Source: a virus
Lineage: Duplodnaviria > Heunggongvirae > Uroviricota > Caudoviricetes
Virus record (IMG/VR): IMGVR_UViG_2740892439_000018
Reading direction: 5' to 3' (one strand)
DNA: 16,746 bases
The position numbers and the translations under genes are program-made. Positions 329 to 15,839 of the stretch are shown piece by piece (the first letter of the stretch is position 1; every line of letters begins with the position of its first letter). The notes beneath the pieces are model-generated. The model saw only the letters and a program-made list of their open reading frames with translations, did not search any database and was not told the DNA's origin.

Positions 329-625
329 ATGTTCGAACAACGCGTAAATTCTGACGTACTGACCGTTTCTACCGTTAACTCTCAGGATCAGGTAACCCAA
401 AAACCCCTGCGTGACTCGGTTAAACAGGCACTGAAGAACTATTTTGCTCAACTGAATGGTCAGGATGTGAATGACCTCTATGAGCTGGTACTGGCTGAAG
501 TAGAACAGCCCCTGTTGGACATGGTGATGCAATACACCCGTGGTAACCAGACCCGTGCTGCGCTGATGATGGGCATCAACCGTGGTACGCTGCGTAAAAA
601 ATTGAAAAAATACGGCATGAACTAA
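329..625 (+). CDS. fis: DNA-binding protein Fis (nucleoid-associated factor for inversion stimulation)
   Basis: 98-aa product [21 protein letters not shown]...[17 protein letters not shown] recognised as E. coli Fis with C-terminal HTH; ATG 329, TAA 623-625. Confidence 0.97.
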
Positions 626-688
626 TTCAGGTTAGCTAAATGCTTGATTAAAAAGGCGCTACTCGGCATGGGGAAGCGCCTTTTTTAT
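609..688. repeat. attL: left copy of perfect 80-bp direct repeat (fis 3' end plus terminator)
   Basis: 80/80 identity with 15760-15839, checked base by base; flanking bases differ at 608/15759 and 689/15840. Covers the last 17 nt of fis and the downstream hairpin. Confidence 0.88.
650..688 (+). terminator. fis rho-independent terminator (copy inside attL)
   Basis: Stem AGGCGCT (654-660) / AGCGCCT (675-681) followed by TTTTTT (681-686); A-tract upstream. Confidence 0.7.
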
Positions 689-1410: not shown

Positions 1411-1697
1411 CGCCGCAGTCGTTCCGGCTTCTTCCACTGGTAAGTATTTTTCGCGCTCTCCCTCCGTTGTTGAGAACGGCGACGGTATGCCAGCAACTCA
1501 AGGACTCTGGTTCGTATGTTGCGCATATCCACGCCGTTAAGCTCAATACCGTCACGGCGCATCACCTCAGCCACCACACGCGCGTAATTTTCGGCTATCA
1601 CGCTGTCCGGCTGTGTAGCCTGTTCGTCAGGCTGCTGACTGATTCCGGTAATGCGGCGAATTATTTTTAGTAGATCAGTTTCAGTCATTCTCGTCAT
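1407..1697 (-). CDS. Hypothetical protein, translationally coupled to terL (ATGA overlap)
   Basis: 96-aa ORF whose ATG (1697-1695) overlaps the terL stop TGA (1696-1694); N-terminal two-thirds protein-like, basic C-terminus looks odd. No recognised family. Confidence 0.35.
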   Translation of the reverse strand: MTRMTETDLLKIIRRITGISQQPDEQATQPDSVIAENYARVVAEVMRRDGIELNGVDMRNIRTRVLELLAYRRRSQQRRESAKNTYQWKKPERLRR

Positions 1698-3355
1698 ACC
1701 CCATCAAACGCCGCAAGTCGCTCTTTGTGGCTGTCGCTCATATCAAATGCAAATTCCTCATGCTCTGCCTGGAATGTGCCAAACGCCATCAGCGCCGCAA
1801 CGCTCGGGTCTATCTTGTTGGATGATTTTTTCTTGTTCGGCTTGATATTGGCGTTCGCGTCACTCTGCATCACAACATTACTCATTGACCAGGCCAGCAC
1901 CGGATCACCACGATGCACAATCACCTTCCGGTTAACAAAAACTTCGAACGATTTCGCCGCCGGACTGAAACGAAGGTATGTTTGCGGGAACGGCTCCACC
2001 TCAAATCCTGCCCCCTGTAGCTGCGTCCTCAGGTGCGTGGCGTTCCATGTATCGAAGCCCACCAGCCTGATATTGAAATTCTCTGCATCCGCCATGATGT
2101 CATCACGGATACGGTCATAATCAATGCAGTCACCCGGTGTTGTGCGTATCCAGCCCGCCTTTACCCACTGGCGATAGATGGCGCGGTTTTTATTGGCGGG
2201 GTTCTGTAGCTGAAATTCCGGCAGATAGTGACGGGAAACCAGCATAATCTTTTTACCGACCGGAAAGGCATAGCACACGCTGGAAATATCGCTGGTTGAT
2301 GATAAGTCCAGCCCCGCGTAGCACTCCTGCCCGTATAAATCCGCCTCCGCGAACGTTCCGGCGCACTCCGCCCATGCACCGTTACCCATCCACGGCGTAG
2401 CCCCCTGACACCAGATATTGAATCGCTTGGTGAGCATTTCCACCCACTGCGACGGAATACCCCGCGCTTTCTGGATGGTTGAGGCCAGTTTTTCACGATC
2501 GACGGAAACATCGATATTTGGATTCGCCTTTATCCACATCGCCGGATCGTCAACCTCGCTTTCATCATCCAGCTCGTAAATCAGAACGAACATGGATTCG
2601 TTCATCTCTTCACCATCCAGTATCTGACAGCAATAGTCATAGTGTTGTTTACAGGCTGAAACAACGTTGCTCCCCGATGTGGTGATGGCAAATAACAGCC
2701 CCTCCGGACGCGCCCCCATCCCCAGCTCAAGTGCGGAATAAACCCCGTTGTCTGGGTGCAGGTGATATTCATCCACAATGGCAAGACTCGGGTTTGTCCC
2801 CTCAATGGTTGCCGCTTTTGCTGCCAGTGGCTTTAACAGGCTGTTGGTTTTCGGGTGTATCACCTTGTGCGCCTGAATATTTACCCGCTTTCGTAACGGT
2901 CGGGATAAAAGGCACATCTGACGCGCATCATCAAACACGATCCGCGCCTGATCACGACTCACGGCGGCGGTGTAAATATCCTGCTGCCCGTTTTCCATAA
3001 CCAGAAACCAGTTAGCCAGGATAGCGGCGACCGTGGATTTGGCATTTTTTCGCGGTACTTCAATGAATGCGCTGGTGTATTTGCGCCGTCCGGTGGCCTT
3101 AACCTTAAAGCCCAGGATGCAGGCAAAGGCGAACTGCTGCCACGGCTCCAGTTCAATGGGACTACCGCGCATTGCGCCTTTTACGTGCGGACACACCCGG
3201 GAAAAGGCAATAAACCGCTCCACGACCTCCGGATCGAACGTGTAAAGGGAGTTTTCAAGGTCAGAAAAATACCGTTTAACGGCCTGTTTCAGTCGTTTAC
3301 AGGCCGTAATTTTGCCGTTTTTTACGCCTTCTGCGTACTCATGCCAGGCGGTCAA
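1694..3355 (-). CDS. terL: Terminase large subunit (TerL)
   Basis: 553-aa product with a terminase-type N-terminal ATPase region and C-terminal nuclease region; follows terS with 17-nt overlap. Start appears to be TTG at 3355 preceded by GAGGAAGAGG Shine-Dalgarno. Confidence 0.92.
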   Translation of the reverse strand: MTAWHEYAEGVKNGKITACKRLKQAVKRYFSDLENSLYTFDPEVVERFIAFSRVCPHVKGAMRGSPIELEPWQQFAFACILGFKVKATGRRKYTSAFIEVPRKNAKSTVAAILANWFLVMENGQQDIYTAAVSRDQARIVFDDARQMCLLSRPLRKRVNIQAHKVIHPKTNSLLKPLAAKAATIEGTNPSLAIVDEYHLHPDNGVYSALELGMGARPEGLLFAITTSGSNVVSACKQHYDYCCQILDGEEMNESMFVLIYELDDESEVDDPAMWIKANPNIDVSVDREKLASTIQKARGIPSQWVEMLTKRFNIWCQGATPWMGNGAWAECAGTFAEADLYGQECYAGLDLSSTSDISSVCYAFPVGKKIMLVSRHYLPEFQLQNPANKNRAIYRQWVKAGWIRTTPGDCIDYDRIRDDIMADAENFNIRLVGFDTWNATHLRTQLQGAGFEVEPFPQTYLRFSPAAKSFEVFVNRKVIVHRGDPVLAWSMSNVVMQSDANANIKPNKKKSSNKIDPSVAALMAFGTFQAEHEEFAFDMSDSHKERLAAFDGV

Positions 3356-3695
3356 GTTCGTCCTCTTCCTCTGTTTCCGGTGGATTTCTGCGACGGCTTA
3401 CCGGGTCAAAACCCAGCAAAGAAGCCATTTTGATCATTATTCTTTCTGCGTCAGCCTTTGCGCTCAGTGCGGGGTTTCTGCTCTCGCTGCCCTGACTGTT
3501 AACAATGCTGAACCCGCGCGTCGCAAGGTCTTCGACGGCTTTGCGGTATATGGAGTAGTTAACACAATACAGTTCCAGATTGCTCCAGTCGGCGGGGGTA
3601 AGGTCTTCCCGCCCGGAAAGCTGGCGCGATTTTTCCTTCCACTGCCTGACCGCGATTTCATCCAGGTAAGCGGGGGCTTTTGGTGGTCTTGCCAT
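3339..3695 (-). CDS. terS: Terminase small subunit (P27-like TerS)
   Basis: MARPPKAPAYLDEIAVRQWKE... resembles P27-family small terminase; immediately upstream of terL. ORF-track start at 3740 is a TTG; first ATG is at 3695. Confidence 0.82.
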   Translation of the reverse strand: MARPPKAPAYLDEIAVRQWKEKSRQLSGREDLTPADWSNLELYCVNYSIYRKAVEDLATRGFSIVNSQGSESRNPALSAKADAERIMIKMASLLGFDPVSRRRNPPETEEEDELDRLA

Positions 3696-3746: not shown

Positions 3747-3805
3747 GAGGGGGCGGTCGGTGTCCGGCAGGGACGGTTTCGTCCTGAAAACCCCCCCCCC
3801 CCCCC
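3747..3805. other. GC-rich block plus C15 homopolymer between HNH and terS; candidate cos/packaging site
   Basis: GAGGGGGCGGTCGGTGTCCGGCAGGGACGGTTTCGTCCTG (3747-3786) then 15 consecutive C (3791-3805); sits where HNH-dependent cos phages place cos, upstream of terS. Confidence 0.4.
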
Positions 3806-3983
3806 TCTGACGGCCTCACCAGCGATTGCGAAAACATTCCATGACCTCGCGGTCACGGTCGGTTAATCGCTTCGCTGTGGTGCGTTTTGTGCGCCCTGTC
3901 CTGTTGGCTTTGTGCTCTGTCTCCTGTGTCTTCCATGTGTCACGCTGCCTTATCAGTCCACGTATCAGCTGGTTTGCTCCTGT

Positions 3984-4424
3984 TCAGTCATCATCGCCAT
4001 ACATCCAGTCGTTACGGTGTGCCGCCCGTTCTTCCTGCTCGCGATACATGCCCGCTTTACGGTTTGCTTTCGTGGCTGGATCTTCCCGTGTCGTCTTACG
4101 GTTGTGGCACGTCTGGCACAATGCCTGGTGATTCCACTCAGGCCAGAAGAGAACATCACCGCCGCCATTGATGGGAATGATGTGATCCACCACAAGAGCT
4201 GGCGTATAAATCCCCTTAGCCAGACAACGCACGCATAACGGGTTTTTGCTCAGGTACAGGGCGCGGTATTTGTCCCACTGTCGGGAATACCCGCGCGCGC
4301 GGCGGTGTCCCCGTCTGGCATCCTCTGCACGCCATGCAGCCCGCCTGTGCTCTTCACACTTGCCGGACTTCACGCGCTTATTACAGCCAGGCTCAGTGCA
4401 TCGCCTTAATGGTTGCCACGGCAT
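3984..4424 (-). CDS. HNH endonuclease (phage packaging-associated)
   Basis: 146-aa product with Cys-rich N-terminus (CTEPGC...C..C) and HNH core ...LVVDHIIPINGGGD...NHQALCQTCHNRKT; AGGGGTG Shine-Dalgarno; overlaps connector stop (TGATG). Confidence 0.9.
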   Translation of the reverse strand: MPWQPLRRCTEPGCNKRVKSGKCEEHRRAAWRAEDARRGHRRARGYSRQWDKYRALYLSKNPLCVRCLAKGIYTPALVVDHIIPINGGGDVLFWPEWNHQALCQTCHNRKTTREDPATKANRKAGMYREQEERAAHRNDWMYGDDD

Positions 4425-4726
4425 CAGTACACCCCTACGTCACGATAAACTGACCAGAGCGCAGAAATAGCCATAGGCAGTTCCGAGTGCTCCACTGGTG
4501 AAACCGCTTCCCGGTTCTCGTACAGGAAAGCGATGTACATCAGGCAACCAACACGCATTGCCGGGGTAAATTCCAGCCCGTCTTCAAAACGTTTCCCGAT
4601 ATGCTTCTGGCAGGCTTCCAGCGCCGCATCGGTATACATTTTCAGAAGTTCGCCTTCACCGGATAAATCATCATCAAGTCGAAGATGTGCCCTGACTTCA
4701 TCAGGTGTAATTCTGGCTTCACTCAT
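4424..4726 (-). CDS. Head-tail connector / DNA-packaging protein (gp6-like)
   Basis: MSEARITPDEVRAHLRLDDD... resembles the N-terminus of gp6-type head-tail connector proteins; GGGAGA Shine-Dalgarno before ATG 4726; 8-nt overlap with portal stop. Confidence 0.65.
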   Translation of the reverse strand: MSEARITPDEVRAHLRLDDDLSGEGELLKMYTDAALEACQKHIGKRFEDGLEFTPAMRVGCLMYIAFLYENREAVSPVEHSELPMAISALWSVYRDVGVY

Positions 4727-5933
4727 CTTTTCTCCCTTTAATTTCCACAGTCTGTTTCCATGCCTGGCTGAACTCATCACCACCTTCACGCGGCGGCATA
4801 CCCTCACGCTCACGGGCTTCGTTCGGATTCATGATCCCGTTCTTAATCCCTTTCTCATACGTGGCATAACGTTCGGTGGGTGTGGCGCGTAATAAATCGG
4901 CTGAATCAAACTCAACCAGATAACGGGTACCAGGTACGGGAGAAGCCACCAGCAAAGCGGCCTTGATTTGCTGTTCGAAGTTCGCCAGCCACGGGCGCAT
5001 TGTCATGGTCAGAAACGCGCGGCTTGCCTCGCTGAAATTGCTGTAGGTGCTGTTGCTGTATTCCTGCAGAAAAATAGGCGATACGTTGAACATGCGGGCG
5101 ATGTCTTCAATGGAGAAGCGACGGGAGGCCAGCCATTCCGCATCCTGGTTACTCATTCCCAGTTGCCTGTAATCCATGCCCCCTTCAAGGATTGGCGTTT
5201 TTCCGGCATTTTTCGCCCCCTTGTAGCGTTCCAGAGCATCCAATGCCTGTTTACCTTTCACGCCGTCCAGCCATTCGCCTGACGTGATAATCCCTGCCGC
5301 CATCATGCCATCTTTCATAATGCTGGCTCCGTGGCGCTGTTGAGCAAGGCCAAGCCCAAGTGCCTCACGGCAAATCGTGACGGGGGAGCGCCCCAGAAAG
5401 CCATCATCCGAGGCATAGCGGAGATGCAGAACTTCTTCCTGTAAATACGTGCGCACCGTTCCTGTATAGGGTTCGGTGATGGTATAGCGGTATTTGTGTG
5501 CGCCTGTGCGTTCCGGTACAACACACCCCGGCGCATAAGGATGAAGTGATTTTGGCTGCCCGTCCTGCCCCCACTCAATAACCGCATAGGCGTTACCGTT
5601 CAGCAGGCAGTGACGCATCATTGTGCGTTTAAACTGGTAAGGTGTCTGGCACGAATTAGGCTGCTCATTCAGCAGAATATCTACCGGGTGACTGTCCAGC
5701 CATTCCCGCGCCTCCCTGCCCTTGTCATTACGTACCAGATACAGATAACACGGCATCGTGGCCACCGCCTCAGCGATGACAGAAACCGCATTCATCACTG
5801 CAGGCAATGATTCAGCCGTCCCGGCAGAAACATATTCTCCGGATCCGGTATTCGGTACGCCGGACAGCGCCAGAAAATCATCAATGGACAGGTTACGCTG
5901 CTCGCTTTTTTTACGACTAAAAGGCCACCACAT
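4719..5933 (-). CDS. Portal protein (HK97 family)
   Basis: Portal-like blocks (LPAVMNAVSVIAEAVATMPCYLY, NEQPN, LLNGNAY, IARMFNVSPIFL, RPWLANFEQ); first ATG at 5933, 1 nt after protease stop. ORF-track start 6023 is TTG. Confidence 0.92.
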   Translation of the reverse strand: MWWPFSRKKSEQRNLSIDDFLALSGVPNTGSGEYVSAGTAESLPAVMNAVSVIAEAVATMPCYLYLVRNDKGREAREWLDSHPVDILLNEQPNSCQTPYQFKRTMMRHCLLNGNAYAVIEWGQDGQPKSLHPYAPGCVVPERTGAHKYRYTITEPYTGTVRTYLQEEVLHLRYASDDGFLGRSPVTICREALGLGLAQQRHGASIMKDGMMAAGIITSGEWLDGVKGKQALDALERYKGAKNAGKTPILEGGMDYRQLGMSNQDAEWLASRRFSIEDIARMFNVSPIFLQEYSNSTYSNFSEASRAFLTMTMRPWLANFEQQIKAALLVASPVPGTRYLVEFDSADLLRATPTERYATYEKGIKNGIMNPNEAREREGMPPREGGDEFSQAWKQTVEIKGRKDE

Positions 5934-5934
5934 A

Positions 5935-6495
5935 TCACAACCCCGCCAGCTCAGACCAGCGATGACGATTATTTCCTGTCGGGCATAATTCAGGGTGCTG
6001 TGCAAACAACGAACGGTGGGCAATCTCCACGCCAGATTCTGGATAAGCAGGCATCGACGTTATTGTGATTTCACGGAGTTCAGCGGCGGTTACGGTACGC
6101 AAATACGGTTTTTGCGCGATACTCCACTCCTCGCATAATGCGCGAAAACCAAAGCTCATTCCTGTAATGTCGCCACGCTCCACCAGCGTAAGCACATCTT
6201 TTCCAAGCTGGGTATCCGGCGGTGTCAGTTCAAAACGTAACCCGGTGTTATCCTCAGTCAGTACCAGAGTGCCGGATTTGGTGCGCCCCAGCAGTTGGGT
6301 ATAGTCATGCTCATACAGGCAGCGCACATCATTACCCGCCGCCAGATAGTCAGCAAAAGCCCCCGGCGTGAACTGTTCGCGGAATTCGTCCCAGATAATT
6401 TCTGAAAGGCTGTTCCAGCGAACGGCATACCCCACCAGCTTTTTATTGCTGGCGGTCAGTTCAGATGTGCGGATTTCAAAATCGGTGTTTTTCAT
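5935..6495 (-). CDS. Prohead maturation protease (HK97 family, S78/U35)
   Basis: 186-aa product with GYAVRWN...FTPGAF...EHD...LGRT...EDNTGLRFE...GMSFGF pattern typical of HK97 prohead proteases; GGAG Shine-Dalgarno 7 nt before ATG 6495. Confidence 0.9.
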   Translation of the reverse strand: MKNTDFEIRTSELTASNKKLVGYAVRWNSLSEIIWDEFREQFTPGAFADYLAAGNDVRCLYEHDYTQLLGRTKSGTLVLTEDNTGLRFELTPPDTQLGKDVLTLVERGDITGMSFGFRALCEEWSIAQKPYLRTVTAAELREITITSMPAYPESGVEIAHRSLFAQHPELCPTGNNRHRWSELAGL

Positions 6496-6549: not shown

Positions 6550-7717
6550 CTAGCCAGCTTTCATTTCCAGAATTTTGATGGCGTTTGAATCCACCACACC
6601 ACCGCCCAGATATTTATCCGTGTGGACCTTGTAGAATCCGGGTTCAGTAATGTTGTCCGGTCGGGTGCGAATCCCTGTTACATGATCAACGATGAAATAA
6701 CCACGACTGAAATCGCCAACCGCTAGCGGTGCTTTTCCTGCGCCGATGTCCGGCATGGACTCCAGGCAGTAAACAGGACGACCAAGCAACATATCCGGCG
6801 CACCTTCTTTAAGGCTGTCGCGCCAGATATAATCGCCGTTCTCATTTTTCAGCTTCTGTAGTGTCCCTGCCGTGCCCGAGTTCATCACCCAGACGGCATT
6901 TTTGCGGTATTTCGCTTTCAGCTTGTAGAGAATGTCGATCAGTTCGTCCGCTGTAATGGCGGTTCCACTTGCCGCTACCATTTTTTCAATGGTGCCAAAA
7001 GCGCGGGTTTTGTCACTGGTCGCCGCACGGGTGTAAGCATGAAGCCTTTCGGCTTGCCGTTACCGTTGCCATTAACAAAATCATCCTCTTCGGTGCTGGC
7101 GAACGTGTCGGCAATTTCGGAGGATAACCAGCCAGAATATCCACCTCTGAAAAATCTAGGATTTCCTGCGTGGTTTTCGGGTAGGCGTAGATCGGGTTCA
7201 GCTTGATGGTTACGCGTTCAATTTTCGGGGTGTTGGTTTCACTGCGTGCGCTGCCTTCTGTGCCTCGTCCTACAGTTGCGCCGCCAGTGGAAACCAGTTT
7301 CTGAAACTCATTTGATTTTGCAGTCTTCACGGTCGCGATCACGCGCATAACACTGTCATCCTGTAGCTGGCGCATGACTTCGCGATCAAGCTCAGGAATT
7401 ACGGTATATCCGCCATCCCTGCCGCTGTCAGTGCTGGTGGACAGAGATCGCACATCTCCGGTTACGATGTAGTTACGCAATTCATCAGATGATACTTTCT
7501 GGATGCCCGTTCCTGGCTTGCTGCGTTCTTCATCAGCCACAGACTCGAGGCGGGAAATGTCTGTATCGAGGGAATCAGCTTTTGCACGCAGTTCATCAAA
7601 CTGTTTGCCCTCGTCATCGTTCAGGCTGCGGTTTTCACTGTCGGCTTTTTCCAGCAGGGATCGCATCTGGTTTTTCAGGGCGTTTTTTTGCTGGCGGAGC
7701 TCGATTAATTTCTTCAT
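6550..7717 (-). pseudogene. Major capsid protein (HK97 family), disrupted by two single-base frameshifts
   Basis: N-terminal frame 7717-7013 (coiled-coil delta-like region then TIKLNPIYAYPKTTQEILDFSEVDILAGY); a third frame across about 7125-7035 reads SSEIADTFASTEEDDFVNGNGNGKPKGF; C-terminal frame 6981-6550 reads AYTRAATSDKTRAFGTIEKMVAASG...MKAG. Hand translation puts the shifts near 7119-7126 and 7036-7043. Confidence 0.85.
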
Positions 7718-7964: not shown

Positions 7965-8741
7965 ATGGAGATTCAAGTGACAAAAGAAATTCTTGCTGTT
8001 CCTGGGATGCGACCATCCCCATTGTTCAAAAGGACTTATAAATTAGTTCGGGAGATTGACGAAAGATTAACCAAACTGATTCATAGATGGCGATTTTTCA
8101 ATGCAGGCCCCCCCATGAAAGTTACTGCATATGATGGAACAGAAATATGCTATCAAGGTTTGGCATTTAAAGGTACTCCCGTTCAAATTTTTTGGAATGG
8201 TTTTATCGATCCTTACATTGAAAATAACTCAGAAATTGTTTTAGAGCAGACCTCCGCGTTAGCAATTGAATGTCAATTCTCAATAGAGGAGTCAATCGAG
8301 GAGGCTAAATTACTATTACTTGTGATGATTCGCAGGCTTTACTATGAAATGGCCGAAACAGATAAAATATTAAGAGGTGATGGGTTTTCCTTCCCAGAAA
8401 AAAAAGACGTTAGTGGTTATATTGAAAGTATCTCTCAAAAAATCATAGAACATGCTGAAATTGAAAAGCTAAAAAAAACGCATCCAAAACAAAACATATT
8501 CAACATAGCTACTGTAAATAGCCAATACGTACAACTTGGTACAAATAACAATATTAATATACAAGAGCTCTCTGAGTTCTTCTCAAAAATTGCATCAACT
8601 GGTGAAAAAGAAATTATTACTCTCTCAAAAAACCTTCTTAAGAAGGCCTACTCAAAAAACTTACTGAGTAAAGAAAACTATGAAGCTCTAATATCAAACC
8701 TTAACACACAGACAAAATACACTTTCAAATCTACTAGTTAA
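7965..8741 (+). CDS. Hypothetical protein (258 aa), AT-rich accessory gene, unrecognised family
   Basis: Long ORF on the strand opposite to every other island gene, visibly AT-rich; possible alternative GTG start at 7977 preceded by GGAG. C-terminal module NIFNIATVNSQYVQLGTNNNINIQEL...KNLLKK shared with the next gene. Confidence 0.75.
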   Translation: MEIQVTKEILAVPGMRPSPLFKRTYKLVREIDERLTKLIHRWRFFNAGPPMKVTAYDGTEICYQGLAFKGTPVQIFWNGFIDPYIENNSEIVLEQTSALAIECQFSIEESIEEAKLLLLVMIRRLYYEMAETDKILRGDGFSFPEKKDVSGYIESISQKIIEHAEIEKLKKTHPKQNIFNIATVNSQYVQLGTNNNINIQELSEFFSKIASTGEKEIITLSKNLLKKAYSKNLLSKENYEALISNLNTQTKYTFKSTS

Positions 8742-8770: not shown

Positions 8771-9280
8771 ATGGATCTTAACGTCATGGCATATCCAGAA
8801 AAATTCACAATCGCAGGAGTTGAATACAAGGGGAAAAGAAACTCAGCTGAAAAAAAAGTGCTAATCCCTTATACTGAAGAACCAGATATTAATATTGGAG
8901 ATGAAATCACTCAAAAACTAGGGAAGGGGGAAATAATATTAAAAGTAATTGATATGTCATTTTTACCAGGAGGTACACTCAATGTTGGTACTAATCACCC
9001 TCACATGCTTACATTAAAAGTCGAGAATCTGACTGCTAATGAACATAAACCAAAACAATCTAGCCAAAATACATTTAACATTGGTAACATATCCGGTACA
9101 CAGGTTCAACTCGGTGAGCATAACAATCTTATTGTAAATCTCAGCATAACTGAACTTGTTGAAAAAGTTTCTCAATCACAAGATCCTCAGGCAAAAAATT
9201 TGCTTAAGGATTTACTAAATAATAGTACGGTAGCCAGTCTCGTTGGTGCTGGTGCGTCCGCCTTGTTAACAATGCTTTGA
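8771..9280 (+). CDS. Hypothetical protein (169 aa), AT-rich accessory gene with hydrophobic C-terminal tail
   Basis: Strong GAGGAG Shine-Dalgarno 7 nt before ATG 8771, 29 nt after the previous stop; motif NTFNIGNISGTQVQLGEHNNLIVNLS...KNLLKD parallels the upstream protein; ends ...STVASLVGAGASALLTML. Confidence 0.8.
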   Translation: MDLNVMAYPEKFTIAGVEYKGKRNSAEKKVLIPYTEEPDINIGDEITQKLGKGEIILKVIDMSFLPGGTLNVGTNHPHMLTLKVENLTANEHKPKQSSQNTFNIGNISGTQVQLGEHNNLIVNLSITELVEKVSQSQDPQAKNLLKDLLNNSTVASLVGAGASALLTML

Positions 9281-9723: not shown

Positions 9724-9946
9724 CTGTTCACCTTTTGATATTTTATCTTTTAATTCATAAGGTTAAGGGGTGAACAGTTTCACAAAAACTATTCACCAAC
9801 TGTTCACCACTGTTCACCCTTGAAGCTCAATAAACAATCAAAAAGGTGAACAGTGAATAGTTTGGTGAACAGTTCATAAATAACTGTTCACCCTATAATA
9901 TACTGATATAAAAGATATTTATGACAGGGTGAACAGTGGTGAACAG
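9724..9946. repeat. Iteron array (9 copies of GGTGAACAG / CTGTTCACC in both orientations); putative island replication origin
   Basis: Forward copies at 9769, 9845, 9864, 9928, 9938; reverse copies at 9724, 9800, 9810, 9884; embedded in AT-rich DNA immediately 3' of the primase-helicase stop (9960-9962). Confidence 0.72.
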
Positions 9947-9959
9947 TTATTCCATAAGT

Positions 9960-11777
9960 TTAATTTTTGCTATCGTCATTAGTGACCGATACACATGATG
10001 GCATCCAGTCTTCTGATTCCTCCGTCAGTGTCACGTTTGAACGCAAACCGTGCTTCGTTTTCCGTTTCATATACTCCCTGCCATATTCCGCCATTGCCCC
10101 CGGCATATCTTTACCGAAGCGCGTCAGTGTTACAGGTTTACCAAACCCATGTGCCCTCATATAAGCCAGATAGGCATGATAGAGATATCTGCGCGGGCTG
10201 AATGGCACAATTTCAGCATTACCCACTAACAGGCCATCACACATTACCGACGCCATGAGATAGCCGCAGAAGTCCACCAGCGAATCCCCCTCTCGCTTTA
10301 TCGCCAGTGCTTCTTCAGATTTCTGCTGCTCATATAACAGGCGTCTGGCTTCGTCCTGGTTAGCAAACCGTGTAAGCAGATGGCGAATCACTACCGCCAG
10401 CTCACCTTCTATTTTTTCCGCCAGCATCGGATCACGTTCGTTCTCCGGTACAACTTCCGAAAAATTGAATATCACCCGACGACGTGAGATCCCCCCGCTG
10501 CGGTCACTGAATGACATGGCGTTATTGTTAACCGCCAGCACTACTGCCGGAATACGCGTTGAGTAGGGAGCTTTGTGTTTCGGGTCAATTGCCACCTTGT
10601 CACCGCCTGTAATGGCCTTAATCCCTGCCCCATCACCAGCGTAGCGGGTCATATCCGGCATGATAATCAGAGAAAAGCCAACCACTAACGCACGTTCCCT
10701 TGCATCTTCCAGCGCCTTCATGCTTGCTGATACTGTATTAGCCTTACCCGCCAGCATGGTGCAAATCTCCGCCATTACGCTTTTACCGCTTCCACCAGGA
10801 CCAGTTACCTCAATGAATAACTGCCAGTCATATCTGTTCGCCAGCACCATGAATAATGCCGCCAGTACACGATCCGCTTTGCGATCATTCTCAGCCACCG
10901 AACGGTGCAACCACTTCCAGAAATTCGGCGCATGTGTTGCCAGCGTTTCCCCCTCTGCTGGTGGGCTGAAAGGTAATTCACTGGCAATTAACAACCAGTC
11001 GTTTTTGTTATGCTCCCGAAAATTACCTGTTCTGGTATCAAATACCCCGTTACTGAATCCAATCAAGTTACGGGCTGTATTCCCCATTACAGGCAAACTT
11101 AACTTCATGGTATCGACCGCTGATTTAATAGCGTTCTGTGAATAGCTGATCTCCGCATCAATGAAAATCTGCGCCATAGCACGCTGTAACTCTTTATCCT
11201 GAACCGGCTCCCATATAACGCCGTTGTAATGGTGAACAGTGTCAGAGTCAGCATGAATCGCCAGTTCACCACCATAATGTGCCAGGAGAACTTCGCCGCG
11301 TTGACTTGCTCCCATCTGGTTAAGCGCCAGTGATGAAGCGTTATCGTCTTTTACCCGCTCTTTTTTCTTTACAGGCAGTTCAACAACCTTTTTCTTTTCC
11401 GCCAGCTCTCCCCGCTCACGCTCCAGATATTCGCGCCAGTTCTCCCGTTTCTGGCTGTGCATTCCTTCAGGGTAATAATCAGCATCCCTGACACCTGCCG
11501 CTGCCAGTTTCTGCCCGATGGTATTAACAAGTCCCGGACGCAATAACCCCGCCTGATAGAGACGCACACGATAGCGTCCGTCTGGTACGATTTGCAGGTT
11601 GTCCAGTTCGGCAAGTTGTTGCTCTCCAAGCCAGACAGGTGGCACGTTATCGCCAGCCAGTCGCCCGTCCTGTTCCTGCCACTGCTTCGCATGTGCCCAC
11701 GCATCACTACCCGCAAAAATGATGACTTCCGTCATTTTGTCACGCGGTTGGTGTTTTAAATTTGGCGCTTTTTTCAT
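9960..11777 (-). CDS. Replication initiator: P4-alpha/D5-like primase-helicase (Pri-Rep) with Walker A GPGGSGKS
   Basis: 605-aa product from ATG 11777 (GGAGAGAG Shine-Dalgarno; ATGA overlap with upstream gene); central P-loop NTPase (VTGPGGSGKS...DxxxD) resembles D5_N/SF3-helicase replication proteins of P4-like elements; ori iterons abut its 3' end. Confidence 0.88.
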   Translation of the reverse strand: MKKAPNLKHQPRDKMTEVIIFAGSDAWAHAKQWQEQDGRLAGDNVPPVWLGEQQLAELDNLQIVPDGRYRVRLYQAGLLRPGLVNTIGQKLAAAGVRDADYYPEGMHSQKRENWREYLERERGELAEKKKVVELPVKKKERVKDDNASSLALNQMGASQRGEVLLAHYGGELAIHADSDTVHHYNGVIWEPVQDKELQRAMAQIFIDAEISYSQNAIKSAVDTMKLSLPVMGNTARNLIGFSNGVFDTRTGNFREHNKNDWLLIASELPFSPPAEGETLATHAPNFWKWLHRSVAENDRKADRVLAALFMVLANRYDWQLFIEVTGPGGSGKSVMAEICTMLAGKANTVSASMKALEDARERALVVGFSLIIMPDMTRYAGDGAGIKAITGGDKVAIDPKHKAPYSTRIPAVVLAVNNNAMSFSDRSGGISRRRVIFNFSEVVPENERDPMLAEKIEGELAVVIRHLLTRFANQDEARRLLYEQQKSEEALAIKREGDSLVDFCGYLMASVMCDGLLVGNAEIVPFSPRRYLYHAYLAYMRAHGFGKPVTLTRFGKDMPGAMAEYGREYMKRKTKHGLRSNVTLTEESEDWMPSCVSVTNDDSKN

Positions 11778-12079: not shown

Positions 12080-12400
12080 TTATCCCCGATTTGAATCAGT
12101 ATTCGCTTTCTTTATGGCATTTAATGCATCTGTGGCATTTTCAATGGTGCACCGTAACGAAATATCAAAATGTCCAAGCATTGCCAGTAACAAACCGATA
12201 TTACCCATATCAATGCGCATGGCCTTTGCGTCATATTCCTCATTTTCTGACGCATGCCACATCAGGCTACCAATTGACGCAACAGCCATTGATATATTGT
12301 CAGTAGCCCCATCCGCAGCGGAATAAACCTTTTTAGCAATATCATGCTCACAGTTAAAATGCGGATTAATCAGGTACTGGTAATTTGACATATCAGGCAT
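12080..12400 (-). CDS. Hypothetical protein (106 aa)
   Basis: Strong AGGAGGTG Shine-Dalgarno 5 nt before ATG 12400; stop 6 nt before the next gene start; unrecognised family. Confidence 0.65.
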   Translation of the reverse strand: MPDMSNYQYLINPHFNCEHDIAKKVYSAADGATDNISMAVASIGSLMWHASENEEYDAKAMRIDMGNIGLLLAMLGHFDISLRCTIENATDALNAIKKANTDSNRG

Positions 12401-12596
12401 GGCGCACCTCCTTGCGGATACGGGCGGTGAACACCATCACGCAGCCAGCCGGGGATTGCTGGCGGGCTTCCTGTTCACTGGTGGCCACGATGGTAATCAC
12501 ACGCGGTTTTGCGGCGCTCAGGGCGATAAAACGCCAGGTGAATTTATTCAGGTTGTGCGAATCCCGCCCTCGCGGGTGTGTGGTATGATTTAACAT
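12393..12596 (-). CDS. Hypothetical small protein (67 aa), first gene of the minus-strand early operon
   Basis: C-terminal portion of a longer, mostly non-protein-like ORF-track frame; own GAGG Shine-Dalgarno before ATG 12596; stop overlaps the next gene start by 8 nt. Competing plus-strand ORFs make this uncertain. Confidence 0.4.
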   Translation of the reverse strand: MLNHTTHPRGRDSHNLNKFTWRFIALSAAKPRVITIVATSEQEARQQSPAGCVMVFTARIRKEVRHA

Positions 12597-12677
12597 AGCT
12601 ACCTCGATAATCTTGCTATCGTTGGTGGTTAGACGCCCTGCATGTGTTGCGAGCACTGCGGGGCGTTGCTCTTTTAG

Positions 12678-12723
12678 GTGTATTTCACCTTTGCTTTTTA
12701 ATTTACTCACTGGTGAAATACAC
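12678..12723. promoter_or_regulatory. Perfect 12-bp inverted repeat GTGTATTTCACC ... GGTGAAATACAC with 22-bp spacer; candidate operator in divergent control region
   Basis: Verified by reverse complement; located between the divergent starts at 12596 (-) and 12790 (+); a TATACT -10-like hexamer lies at 12754-12759. Confidence 0.45.
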
Positions 12724-12789
12724 TTCAAGCCTTTTTTTATCATTTTTTTTGCGTATACTGACATACACCAATTTTTAGGAGATCCAGAA

Positions 12790-12969
12790 ATGGCAACTGG
12801 TGCAAAGAACGCAAAATCACAAATGACAACTGTCAGAATCCCACATGAAGTAATGGATGATATTGAGCAACTTAAAGAACCTGGCGAAAGTACCGCTGGT
12901 TTTTTAGTTACTGCCGCAAAAGGCGAGATCAAACGCCGCCAGCGGCGCAAGGCCAAAGAGCAGGAGTAA
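12790..12969 (+). CDS. Putative ribbon-helix-helix (CopG/Arc-like) DNA-binding protein (59 aa)
   Basis: AGGAG Shine-Dalgarno 8 nt before ATG 12790; TTVRIPHEVMDDIEQL... fits the RHH beta-strand plus helix pattern; basic C-terminus. Confidence 0.5.
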   Translation: MATGAKNAKSQMTTVRIPHEVMDDIEQLKEPGESTAGFLVTAAKGEIKRRQRRKAKEQE

Positions 12970-13026
12970 CCATCACCAGCGCCGTGATGCGGTGAACTGT
13001 GGCGCACAGGGTTACAGGTATCTACG

Positions 13027-13206
13027 ATGACTGACAAATTATTAAAGAAATTATCCTCATCTAGGAAAAAACAACGCAAAAATGCGGTAAACGAACATGA
13101 ACCGGAGAGATTCGCACCATGTGCGTTTGTCCTTGAGAAGTACCTTAAAGAGTATTCCAGGAAAATATGCTTATTGCAGGCATGGCAACAAATCGATCCA
13201 GACTGA
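13027..13206 (+). CDS. Possible small protein (59 aa) downstream of the RHH gene
   Basis: ORF not in the supplied track (below its size cut-off), translated by hand as MTDKLLKKLSSSRKKQRKNAVNEHEPERF...QQIDPD; followed by a plus-strand terminator; weak Shine-Dalgarno. Confidence 0.3.
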   Translation: MTDKLLKKLSSSRKKQRKNAVNEHEPERFAPCAFVLEKYLKEYSRKICLLQAWQQIDPD

Positions 13207-13270
13207 TAGCATTGCCCACCAGCCGACAACCTGGTATTCTGGATATGCTCAAGTTTAGTGTTATGCCACT

Positions 13271-13298
13271 GGCGACCGCCCCCGGTCGCCTTTGTTTT
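13271..13298 (+). terminator. Rho-independent terminator (plus strand)
   Basis: Stem GGCGACCG (13271-13278) / CGGTCGCC (13283-13290), loop CCCC, followed by TTTGTTTT. Confidence 0.65.
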
Positions 13299-13315
13299 AT
13301 ATACCATAACTCACC

Positions 13316-13537
13316 TTACGCCGATTTCAGTTGTGCTTTGGGTTGACGATCAAGCCAATCATTAACCTCAGACAGCAACCAACCGACAGAACGAGCCCCC
13401 AACTGACGACGGGCTGGAAACACCCCTTTCCTTTCCATCATATAACGCGTCGTTCGGCAAATACCGGTAAGGCGTCGGCATTCCTCCTCACGAATGATGC
13501 GATCAAATTGGTCTTGCGATGATTTAACTTTGCTCAT
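13316..13537 (-). CDS. alpA: AlpA-family transcriptional regulator / excisionase-like HTH protein
   Basis: 73-aa product from ATG 13537: ...QFDRIIREEECRRLTGICRTTRYMMERKGVFPARRQLGARSVGWLLSEVNDWL matches the AlpA/prophage CP4-57 regulator pattern. ORF-track upstream extension not supported. Confidence 0.85.
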   Translation of the reverse strand: MSKVKSSQDQFDRIIREEECRRLTGICRTTRYMMERKGVFPARRQLGARSVGWLLSEVNDWLDRQPKAQLKSA

Positions 13538-13630: not shown

Positions 13631-14364
13631 GTTCGCCCTAAGTATTTAGCCCACGTATTCTTATCTGTTGCGGGAAGAAACACCCCTTTCATCGCTGCCG
13701 CAGCCTCTAAAACAGCGATCACTTTAGCAACTGGAGCAGTTCCAATATCTATATCATCCATTTCTGGAATTAGTTTGATTAATGCAGGGATCAACTCAGC
13801 TTTCTTCGCAAGAGTTTTTGGCGATTCTCCCATTTTTCTTCCAGGCATGGTTCCAACATCTTTGATATGCTCCAAATCCTTAGCCATTACACATAAAAAC
13901 CTTCTGTCGATCTCAATAGCCCCATCACTCATAATTTGACATTCCCAGTTTTCTGATTCAGGACGAGTTGAAAAAAAAGATGATACTATCCTTGCATCAT
14001 TGCCAATAAATTCAAGTTCAGAAAAACTTTCCCGATTTAGATAGAAGAAACCGCAAAAATTCTTTGCAAGATAAGAAGCCACACCAAAATAATTTACCCA
14101 TTCAAAATCGCTACCAACAGGCTTCATCCCTGTAATTACCCAGCGATCCCCTTGCAACATCCCTCCAGAATCAACATCAATATTTTCAACTAATGATTTT
14201 GGTATAACTAGCGATTTACATGGATGACAGTTTGGAAAATAAACAGAAATATTCAAAGCACCTATAGCAGCAAAATGATATATATCATTAAGCGTACATC
14301 CCAGCTTCTTTGCTGCTTCAGGCAATGGATAATATATACGCTCAGGGATGCTTATCTTTTTCAT
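13627..14364 (-). CDS. Hypothetical protein (245 aa), AT-rich, translationally coupled to int; possible N-terminal HTH
   Basis: ATG (14364-14362) overlaps the int stop TGA (14363-14361); visibly lower GC than int; N-terminal LPEAAKKLGCTLNDIYHFAAIGAL resembles an excisionase/AlpA-type HTH; remainder unrecognised. Confidence 0.78.
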   Translation of the reverse strand: MKKISIPERIYYPLPEAAKKLGCTLNDIYHFAAIGALNISVYFPNCHPCKSLVIPKSLVENIDVDSGGMLQGDRWVITGMKPVGSDFEWVNYFGVASYLAKNFCGFFYLNRESFSELEFIGNDARIVSSFFSTRPESENWECQIMSDGAIEIDRRFLCVMAKDLEHIKDVGTMPGRKMGESPKTLAKKAELIPALIKLIPEMDDIDIGTAPVAKVIAVLEAAAAMKGVFLPATDKNTWAKYLGRT

Positions 14365-15584
14365 TTCGCTACCTTCAATATTTTTACATTTGAATACTGA
14401 CCAGAAATAACCTCAAGCCGTTCCATCCATTTATTTAGAGCGTCTAGTTTTTCTGGTAAGTACTGGCTACGATTGTATATGGCCATTACACCACCTAATG
14501 TGTGACCGAGAAGCTGTTCAACAACATGTGGTGCAATCCCCATGTTATTTAGTGTGGTAGCAAACGTCCTGCGCAGGTCGTGAAGTGTCCACGATTCAAT
14601 ATGCCCCAGACGCTTATATATCATCCTCCCCCATTGGCTGACAGCTTCTGGTTTCTTTATTTCACCCAACAAAAGACCTGAGTTTTTGTGTTGCTCTATA
14701 AGCTGTTGGATGAATGGGCGTATTACCACTGGAATAGGGCGCAATATCTTCTCTCCGCCTTTGCTGTGTTCTTTAGGCACTGTCCAGATCCAATCCTTTA
14801 AATCCCACTCTGTAATACGTGACAACCGAAGCTCCTGGGTTCGACATCCAAACACCACCAATAGACGCAACAACGATGAATAGTATGGTTTAAATTTCTT
14901 ACCTGAACATTCCTGCCAAATATCTGCTAACTCTTGACTGCTGTGTTCCCTATCGCGCTTATTCTGTTTTCTACCAACATCATCGATAGTCAGGTCATCC
15001 AGAGCATTGCTAACCGCATAACGATGTACGCGGCAAAACTTCAGAGCCTGCTTACACATCTGCAGCAAATAACCAGCTGCCACTGGAGCGTCATTCCTTA
15101 CTCTAGCGAAACACTCCAGCCAATGCCGGGTTTCGCACATTGATAACGGATAATCACCTATATAGGGGAAAATATGCTTCCTCAGTTGCTCAATGTGTTT
15201 ATCAACATTCGTGCGCTTGTAAACGGCGTATTCTCTGATCCAGTAATCCAGAGCCTCTTTTACCGTCACTGGTTTGAGTGTTTCATGTATTGCCACATTT
15301 AACCGATGCTTTGGATTTTTACCTTCAGCAAGCCATGCTCGACACTGTTCACGTTTCTCGCGCGCAGCTTTCAGAGAAAGATCCGGGTAGTTTCCAAGCT
15401 TAACACGCTGTGAATACGATTCACGCCCACCAATCCGGAAAGAGAAATACCAAGTAAGAACGCCAATTTTTGACACCTTGATACTCAATCCATCACCGTC
15501 AGCATAAAATCTATCTCTATCGATTTCCCTCCCCAGCATCTTACGCAACGATGTATCGCTTAATTTGTTCGTTCCTCCAGCCAT
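14361..15584 (-). CDS. int: Tyrosine site-specific integrase (P4-type)
   Basis: 407-aa product from ATG 15584 (AAGG Shine-Dalgarno); N-terminal MAGGTNKLSD... and C-terminal catalytic region ...WTLHDLRRTFATTL...VEQLLGHTLGGVMAIYNRSQY typical of P4-family integrases. ORF-track start 15665 is TTG. Confidence 0.93.
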   Translation of the reverse strand: MAGGTNKLSDTSLRKMLGREIDRDRFYADGDGLSIKVSKIGVLTWYFSFRIGGRESYSQRVKLGNYPDLSLKAAREKREQCRAWLAEGKNPKHRLNVAIHETLKPVTVKEALDYWIREYAVYKRTNVDKHIEQLRKHIFPYIGDYPLSMCETRHWLECFARVRNDAPVAAGYLLQMCKQALKFCRVHRYAVSNALDDLTIDDVGRKQNKRDREHSSQELADIWQECSGKKFKPYYSSLLRLLVVFGCRTQELRLSRITEWDLKDWIWTVPKEHSKGGEKILRPIPVVIRPFIQQLIEQHKNSGLLLGEIKKPEAVSQWGRMIYKRLGHIESWTLHDLRRTFATTLNNMGIAPHVVEQLLGHTLGGVMAIYNRSQYLPEKLDALNKWMERLEVISGQYSNVKILKVAK

Positions 15585-15632: not shown

Positions 15633-15759
15633 CTTTAATATTACCCTATGAACAGAAATGAACAAAGGTAAACTAAAGAAACAACATTAATTATTTTATT
15701 CAATAAGTTATATAAACACTAACGAACCATGACAAACTGTAAGAAACATAGGTTTTGAT

Positions 15760-15839
15760 AATACGGCATGAACTAATTCAGGTTAGCTAAATGCTTGATT
15801 AAAAAGGCGCTACTCGGCATGGGGAAGCGCCTTTTTTAT
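15760..15839. repeat. attR: right copy of perfect 80-bp direct repeat
   Basis: Identical to 609-688; contains a second copy of the fis 3' end and terminator hairpin (about 15801-15839) just upstream of yhdJ. Confidence 0.88.

Follow-up and report, generated by a model that had tools for sequence, protein, structure and literature searches.

Does the broken major capsid gene in this stretch of viral DNA belong to a phage satellite that can no longer build its own capsid, or does the damage exist only in the deposited sequence? The record (IMGVR_UViG_2740892439_000018; 16,746 nucleotides, hereafter the window) carries a gene for an HK97-family major capsid protein on its minus strand, at 6550–7717, and the protein-like reading path of this gene changes frame twice. 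An earlier reading of the DNA, made from the sequence only, had noticed the two switches and had left two explanations standing, an inactivated satellite and assembly errors.

The capsid gene in three frames

As deposited, the gene is 1168 nt long (3n+1), and upon three-frame translation the protein-like path runs from frame 0 into frame 2 and then into frame 1; the record thus holds the capsid coding sequence in three frames and not as a single uninterrupted ORF. The ORF that begins at the start codon (7013–7717) encodes 234 aa as written, of which 195 are native residues and the remaining 39 an aberrant tail that ends at a premature minus-strand stop codon (7013–7015), while the second ORF (6550–6981) encodes 143 aa. 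Pairwise alignment with the intact 1170-nt gene of strain MS6198, which encodes 389 aa, finds exactly two differences, each the loss of one G from the gene strand (CTGGGCTGG to CTGGCTGG and CATGGCTTA to CATGCTTA). The frame switches are read straight off the letters and do not rest on statistics.

Translation and alignment together divide the minus-strand coding path into three segments. Segment A, codons 1–195 (7133–7717), is read in the frame of the start codon; segment B, codons 197–227 (7038–7130; WLSSEIADTFASTEEDDFVNGNGNGKPKGFM), in a second frame; and segment C, codons 229–389 with the stop codon (6550–7035), in a third. The junction of A and B is deletion 1, where the plus strand reads CC at 7132–7133 and every relative reads CCC (GGG to GG on the gene strand, in codon 196). 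That of B and C is deletion 2, at 7038, where the plus strand has C in place of the CC of relatives (ATGGCT to ATGCT on the gene strand, in codon 228).

The sequence-only reading fares well against this alignment. It was right that the frame switches twice, and its interval for the second switch, 7036–7043, contains the deletion at 7038; its interval for the first, 7119–7126, falls 6–14 nt short of the real site, and its spacing of about 85 nt gives way to one of about 95 nt. Both changes, being 1-nt deletions, act in the same direction, as it had said, and do not compensate for each other. The intact length is indeed 389 codons, the motif that it quoted (DDFVNGNGNGKPKGF) does lie in the short middle frame, and the first ORF ends at 7013 after just the kind of non-protein-like stretch that it had described.

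The identity of the gene is clear from both fragments, each of which matches PF05065. Because the middle part of the capsid lies in a third frame, this match is split in the sequence as written, with profile positions 1–94 on the first ORF and 143–279 on the second. Once repaired, the 389-aa protein matches PF05065 (Phage_capsid) over positions 1–279 of 280 with 239.7 bits, against a gathering cut-off of 24.2. Its residues 1–386 match PDB entry 9GYI (9gyi_B) with E=7.9e-155, and it also matches the RcGTA capsid entries 6tb9 and 6tba, with E of about 1e-54. The 9GYI entry is the cryo-EM capsid structure of EcCIEDL933, which has an HK97-like fold (10.1101/2025.02.11.637232). In its full-length match to the family profile, and in having the gene for an S78 prohead protease immediately downstream, the repaired gene resembles those of other HK97-family capsids.

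A cf-PICI next to fis

[quoted passage not shown] A repeat search finds a perfect 80-bp direct repeat, whose first copy (attL, 609–688, plus strand) includes the 3' end of fis and whose second (attR, 15760–15839, plus strand) lies 15,151 bp away, start to start. The empty fis|yhdJ junction is found in many other genomes. The site appears to be an integration hotspot.

Between the repeats, all on the minus strand, are genes for a tyrosine integrase (14361–15584; Phage_integrase and Arm-DNA-bind_3 by Pfam, in agreement with the annotation of relatives), an AlpA regulator (13316–13537; Phage_AlpA by Pfam) and a primase-replicase (9960–11777; D5_N / DUF5906 / Pox_D5 by Pfam). Beyond the capsid gene follow, each of them intact, those for the prohead serine protease (Peptidase_S78 by Pfam, 5935–6495), the portal protein (Pfam and annotation of relatives, 4719–5933), a gp6-like head-tail connector (4424–4726) and an HNH endonuclease (3984–4424), both by Pfam or NCBIfam, the small terminase subunit (Terminase_4 / P27 family by Pfam or NCBIfam, 3339–3695) and the large terminase subunit (Pfam, 1694–3355). 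The sequence-only reading had already taken the gene for a major capsid gene with an HK97-type motif, in a satellite island with int and pri-rep, and the profile matches bear out both the identity and the context.

The definition of a cf-PICI that we apply is that of the SatelliteFinder model, which was followed here with Pfam, PHROGs and NCBIfam scans in place of SatelliteFinder's own profiles, and in which tail and holin genes are forbidden components (PMC10085698). Members of the family are expected to be induced by a helper phage and to be transferred in small capsids of their own, joined to hijacked tails. The island has the size expected, about 15 kb between att repeats, along with the module of integrase, AlpA-type regulator and primase-replicase, and of the eleven core components of the model ten are recognised by Pfam and NCBIfam, among them all of the packaging module but one. 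No second head-tail (adaptor) gene can be assigned by these two collections; an ORF of 93 aa at 1407–1688 matches phrog_1561. No tail or lysis gene is seen between the att repeats, either in the annotation of identical islands or when the remaining ORFs are searched with Pfam, PHROGs and NCBIfam.

The closest point of reference is EcCIEDL933, the prototype cf-PICI of E. coli EDL933, which has the same modules (int, alpA, pri-rep, capsid, S78 protease, portal, connector, HNH, terS and terL) and a size of 15.5 kb, as against 15.15 kb here. The island in the window is nonetheless a different island with a different capsid allele, sited at the 3' end of fis and known here from sequence alone. Its accessory genes differ from those of the prototype, including as they do two phrog_5789 paralogues, and its deposited sequence has three 1-nt deletions, which we judge to be artefacts. 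Neither the island nor the capsid gene is new, the cf-PICI family having been described in 2023.

Intact relatives of the capsid gene

Whether other isolates carry an intact gene had been named as a check by the sequence-only reading, and here the result is plain: an exact look-up finds the intact 389-aa protein on 658 contigs. The product of an allele with deletion 2 only is found by the same look-up on one contig, and the 234-aa truncated product on none. A search of 5,426 complete E. coli genomes gives, as the closest matches, genes of 1170 nt with 99.8% identity, a figure made up of two gaps and zero substitutions. Deletions 1 and 2 occur in none of the 5,426, and the listed copies with at least 98% identity are all exactly 1170 nt in length. 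Outside the deletions, the gene is base-for-base identical to those of at least ten complete genomes.

The aberrant 39-aa tail occurs in no protein among 5.8 billion protein clusters, and the homologue alignment that had likewise been called for therefore finds the C-terminal tail of the first ORF unconserved. At the level of DNA, the junction of deletion 2 has no exact match in GTDB species representatives, IMG/VR or JGI metagenomes, and that of deletion 1 has none in GTDB species representatives, the one collection scanned for it.

The 143-aa C-terminal product, on the other hand, is on record in five contigs, each with a different 1-nt indel in the capsid gene. Because these assemblies carry different indels of their own, the product recurs in databases for unrelated reasons. 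The five assemblies appear error-prone, and several of them have further indels or split neighbouring genes. Assemblies with their own, different 1-nt indels in the capsid gene include NCTC UFZC01 (UFZC01000004.1, in which the portal gene is also split), JBFNRX01 (JBFNRX010000066.1) and the Logan assemblies of ERR2213719 and SRR12247663.

Differences private to the window

The capsid deletions are not the only changes that set the window apart. Compared with eight related islands it has nine private differences, namely three single-C deletions (3969, 7038 and 7132–7133), one inserted C, two A>C changes and three C>T changes. Private SNPs in the eight relatives add up to 136, and private 1-nt indels to only one. 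Near-clonal assemblies share two of the C>T changes of the window (11216 and 13172), which are therefore real lineage markers.

The third deletion, a plus-strand CC>C at 3969, is again private, and cuts off after 10 residues a small conserved minus-strand ORF between the HNH and terS genes (3815–4000; 61 aa when intact; phrog_3173), which is uninterrupted in all relatives. The inserted C and the two A>C changes fall together in the intergenic region upstream of terS, where the alignment sets an uninterrupted run of 15 C residues (the C15 tract, 3791–3805) against CCACCCCCACCCCC in all relatives. Neither this tract nor any of the three deletions is present in the 5,426 complete E. coli genomes searched.

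Each of the three deletions shortens a run of two or three C residues by one, in the context AG[C]C, and the chance of one shared preceding dinucleotide is about 0.009. All 37 of the other homopolymers of at least 6 nt, the C15 tract aside, have the same length as in relatives. A purely homopolymer-length-dependent error process is thereby ruled out as the sole model, and if these are errors they must be specific to site or context. Ion Torrent errors of a site- or context-specific kind have been described.

Two other technical explanations were considered and rejected. Incomplete polishing of a repeated region does not apply, the capsid gene being single-copy in the closest complete genome, and nanopore errors at Dcm sites (CCWGG) could account for one deletion only, that at 3969, which alone sits in CCTGG. 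An artefact of unspecified origin, argued from the indel excess, the AGCC context and the clustering, is suggested by the pattern and not decided by it; this argument has been superseded by the evidence of provenance.

Provenance of the sequence and near-clonal islands

The window is identical (100.000% over 12,787 nt, and over its whole length in a wider alignment) to contig JUDV01000033.1 of E. coli RCE01 (GCA_001630855.1), and this identity marks the contig as its source. The exact primase-replicase protein of the window is found, by look-up, on eight contigs, JUDV01000033.1 among them. The RCE01 genome (JUDV00000000) is a meta-assembly of six colonies from one patient with Crohn's disease, for which pooled Ion Torrent PGM reads were assembled with MIRA 4.0 (PMC5517970). 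As its authors point out, artificial frameshifts arise from homopolymer errors, and the tool with which they corrected the assembly lowered the number of artificial indels by a factor of only about 2.5 (PMC5517970).

Near-clonal islands provide the control. Five independent assemblies other than JUDV01 were compared, GCA_038110205.1, GCA_012928665.2, GCA_032834515.1 and the Logan assemblies of SRR28645733 and SRR24915020. The 389-aa capsid gene is present in all five, and the intact 61-aa ORF together with the CCACCCCCACCCCC tract in all four whose sequence extends that far. Within the island, the window and GCA_038110205.1 disagree at just seven positions, 3791, 3794, 3800, 3968, 7037, 7131 and 15692; over 15 kb this amounts to four indels, two transversions and a single further substitution (C>T). 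This last, at 15692 in the intergenic region between int and attR, is the only substitution that sets the source record apart from the near-clonal islands, and could be a real SNP or another error.

A second assembly bears directly on the question. The Logan contig of run SRR1599274, one of the five with the 143-aa product, matches the window over 8445–3787. It shows deletion 2, being the one contig with the product of the deletion-2-only allele, and breaks off at a pure poly-C tract; deletions 1 and 3 are missing from it and its 61-aa ORF is intact. From these shared and otherwise unique features we infer that SRR1599274 probably comes from the Ion Torrent sequencing of RCE01, the RCE01 paper itself giving no SRA accessions (PMC5517970). 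The YhdJ allele, looked up for the same link, is very common and does not inform it.

Taken together, the platform, the authors' own caveat, the intact near-clonal copies and the disagreement of the SRR1599274 assembly favour assembly errors, and count against an inactivated satellite, in the choice that the sequence-only reading had left open. We are confident that what the window represents is an ordinary cf-PICI at the fis/yhdJ site, with frameshifts that are artefacts of the record. The frameshifts themselves are very probably leftover Ion Torrent sequencing and assembly errors in a draft, and not the mark of a biologically dead gene.

The course of events would then be a simple one. Deletions 1 and 2 would each reflect a short C run called one base too short (CCC>CC and CC>C), a homopolymer error of the Ion Torrent PGM that was carried through into JUDV01000033.1 of the draft MIRA meta-assembly of RCE01; the bases are inferred to be missing from the reads rather than from the DNA. 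Deletion 3 and the C15 tract most likely have the same origin, deletion 3 being a further CC>C, and the tract is probably an Ion Torrent artefact. In the organism, the capsid gene would most likely be an intact 389-codon ORF, as it is in every other copy, and would encode a normal HK97-fold capsid protein.

Comparison with known indels of Ion Torrent and other error-prone assemblies supports this account. Here, too, one finds single-base undercalls of C runs and a miscalled long C tract, and here, too, the changes are private to one Ion Torrent draft and differ between two assemblies. In contrast to simple length-dependent Ion Torrent errors, those in the window affect only runs of 2–3 nt and the C-rich tract.

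Alternative explanations

A first rival is a mixed case: the RCE01 clone would really have deletion 2 and the altered poly-C tract, its capsid gene thus being broken once, and only deletions 1 and 3 would be assembly errors. It draws on the distribution of the changes, deletion 2 and the uninterrupted poly-C tract being present both in JUDV01 and in the separately built SRR1599274 contig, and deletions 1 and 3 in JUDV01 only. Were SRR1599274 an independent and accurate data set, deletion 2 and the poly-C change would indeed be real. If, as is probable, it is an RCE01 Ion Torrent run, the agreement shows only that a read error was systematic and specific to the site. The Logan contig moreover stops within the poly-C tract, as unstable homopolymer calls would cause it to do. 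The single contig with the deletion-2 product, as against the hundreds with the intact protein, also tells against the mixed case, as does the intact capsid gene in the near-clonal islands, and we regard it as very unlikely. The broader proposition, that the RCE01 gut clone truly has at least deletion 2 and a G/C-rich tract upstream of terS turned into a pure homopolymer, is unlikely as well.

A second rival is genuine pseudogenisation, according to which RCE01 would hold a decaying satellite with two independent 1-nt deletions in its capsid gene and a third in the small ORF, and would make no capsids of its own. The deletions do exist in the deposited sequence, they affect two genes of the packaging module, and in a gene already broken further frameshifts would be neutral. 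The mutational balance speaks against it. In E. coli mutation spectra, substitutions exceed indels roughly tenfold, and four indel events beside a single further substitution, the tally when the island is compared over 15 kb with a near-clonal copy, would for this reason be very unlikely to have arisen by mutation. Nor is such decay easily reconciled with a capsid gene that is otherwise base-for-base the same as in complete genomes, with an SRR1599274 assembly that lacks two of the three deletions, or with a platform and an authors' caveat that between them account for the pattern. We consider pseudogenisation most unlikely.

Programmed recoding, in which the ribosome would shift twice to produce the full-length capsid from the sequence as written, has a single point in its favour, that the three segments jointly encode a complete capsid protein, and with practically no chance of being correct it can be dismissed, for we looked for deletions conserved across diverged homologues with slippery sites and found none, neither site has a slippery heptamer (GAT ATT CTG GCT GGT at the first, GGC TTC ATG CTT ACA at the second), one continuous ORF runs through both sites in every homologue, in Klebsiella, Pantoea and Erwinia as in E. 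coli, the extra bases are present in identical islands, and two inefficient serial shifts would not suffice for a T=4 capsid, which needs hundreds of subunits.

Other features of the island

Several further observations concern the rest of the island. The C15 tract adjoins a small inverted repeat (GGACGGTTTCGTCC) upstream of terS, and it is plausible that this intergenic region is the cos/packaging region. Just 3' of the primase-replicase gene, the non-coding stretch at 9769–9957 contains a cluster of direct and inverted repeats of the GGTGAACAG type, which resemble iterons and could indicate where the island's replication origin lies.

In cf-PICIs, the slot between the capsid gene and pri-rep is where defence cargo is expected. 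The window has there two adjacent plus-strand paralogues (7965–8741 and 8771–9280), both assigned to phrog_5789 and both without matches in PADLOC, Pfam or NCBIfam. PADLOC and NCBIfam give nothing significant for the accessory genes of the island.

On the minus strand at 12393–13307, some assemblies annotate an ORF of 304 aa, which has no Pfam or PADLOC match; on identical DNA, RefSeq instead annotates small Icd-like and YlcI/YnfO genes, on both strands. In none of the relatives is a gene annotated in the stretch of about 700 nt from attL to the 93-aa ORF (689–1400), which contains an imperfect direct repeat of 44 nt with 82% identity (1063–1106 and 1367–1410). An Rfam scan of the window returned nothing. 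As for the attachment site itself, in other genomes (L027, L029) the fis|yhdJ junction holds a different element, of an integrase/AlpA/VapE-like type.

Implications

If deletion 2 and the poly-C change were real after all, an E. coli lineage from Crohn's disease would be maintaining a cf-PICI whose capsid gene is dead but whose int, pri-rep and other packaging genes are intact, an early snapshot of satellite domestication or decay. Even then, the island would be just one more recently decayed cf-PICI, and the point a minor one. Under the reading that we prefer, in which the frameshifts are residual sequencing errors, their value is of another kind. They lead back to one particular draft assembly whose problem with indel errors is documented, and taken at face value they would suggest an inactivated phage satellite; the case thus counsels caution over database artefacts that mimic the decay of satellites.
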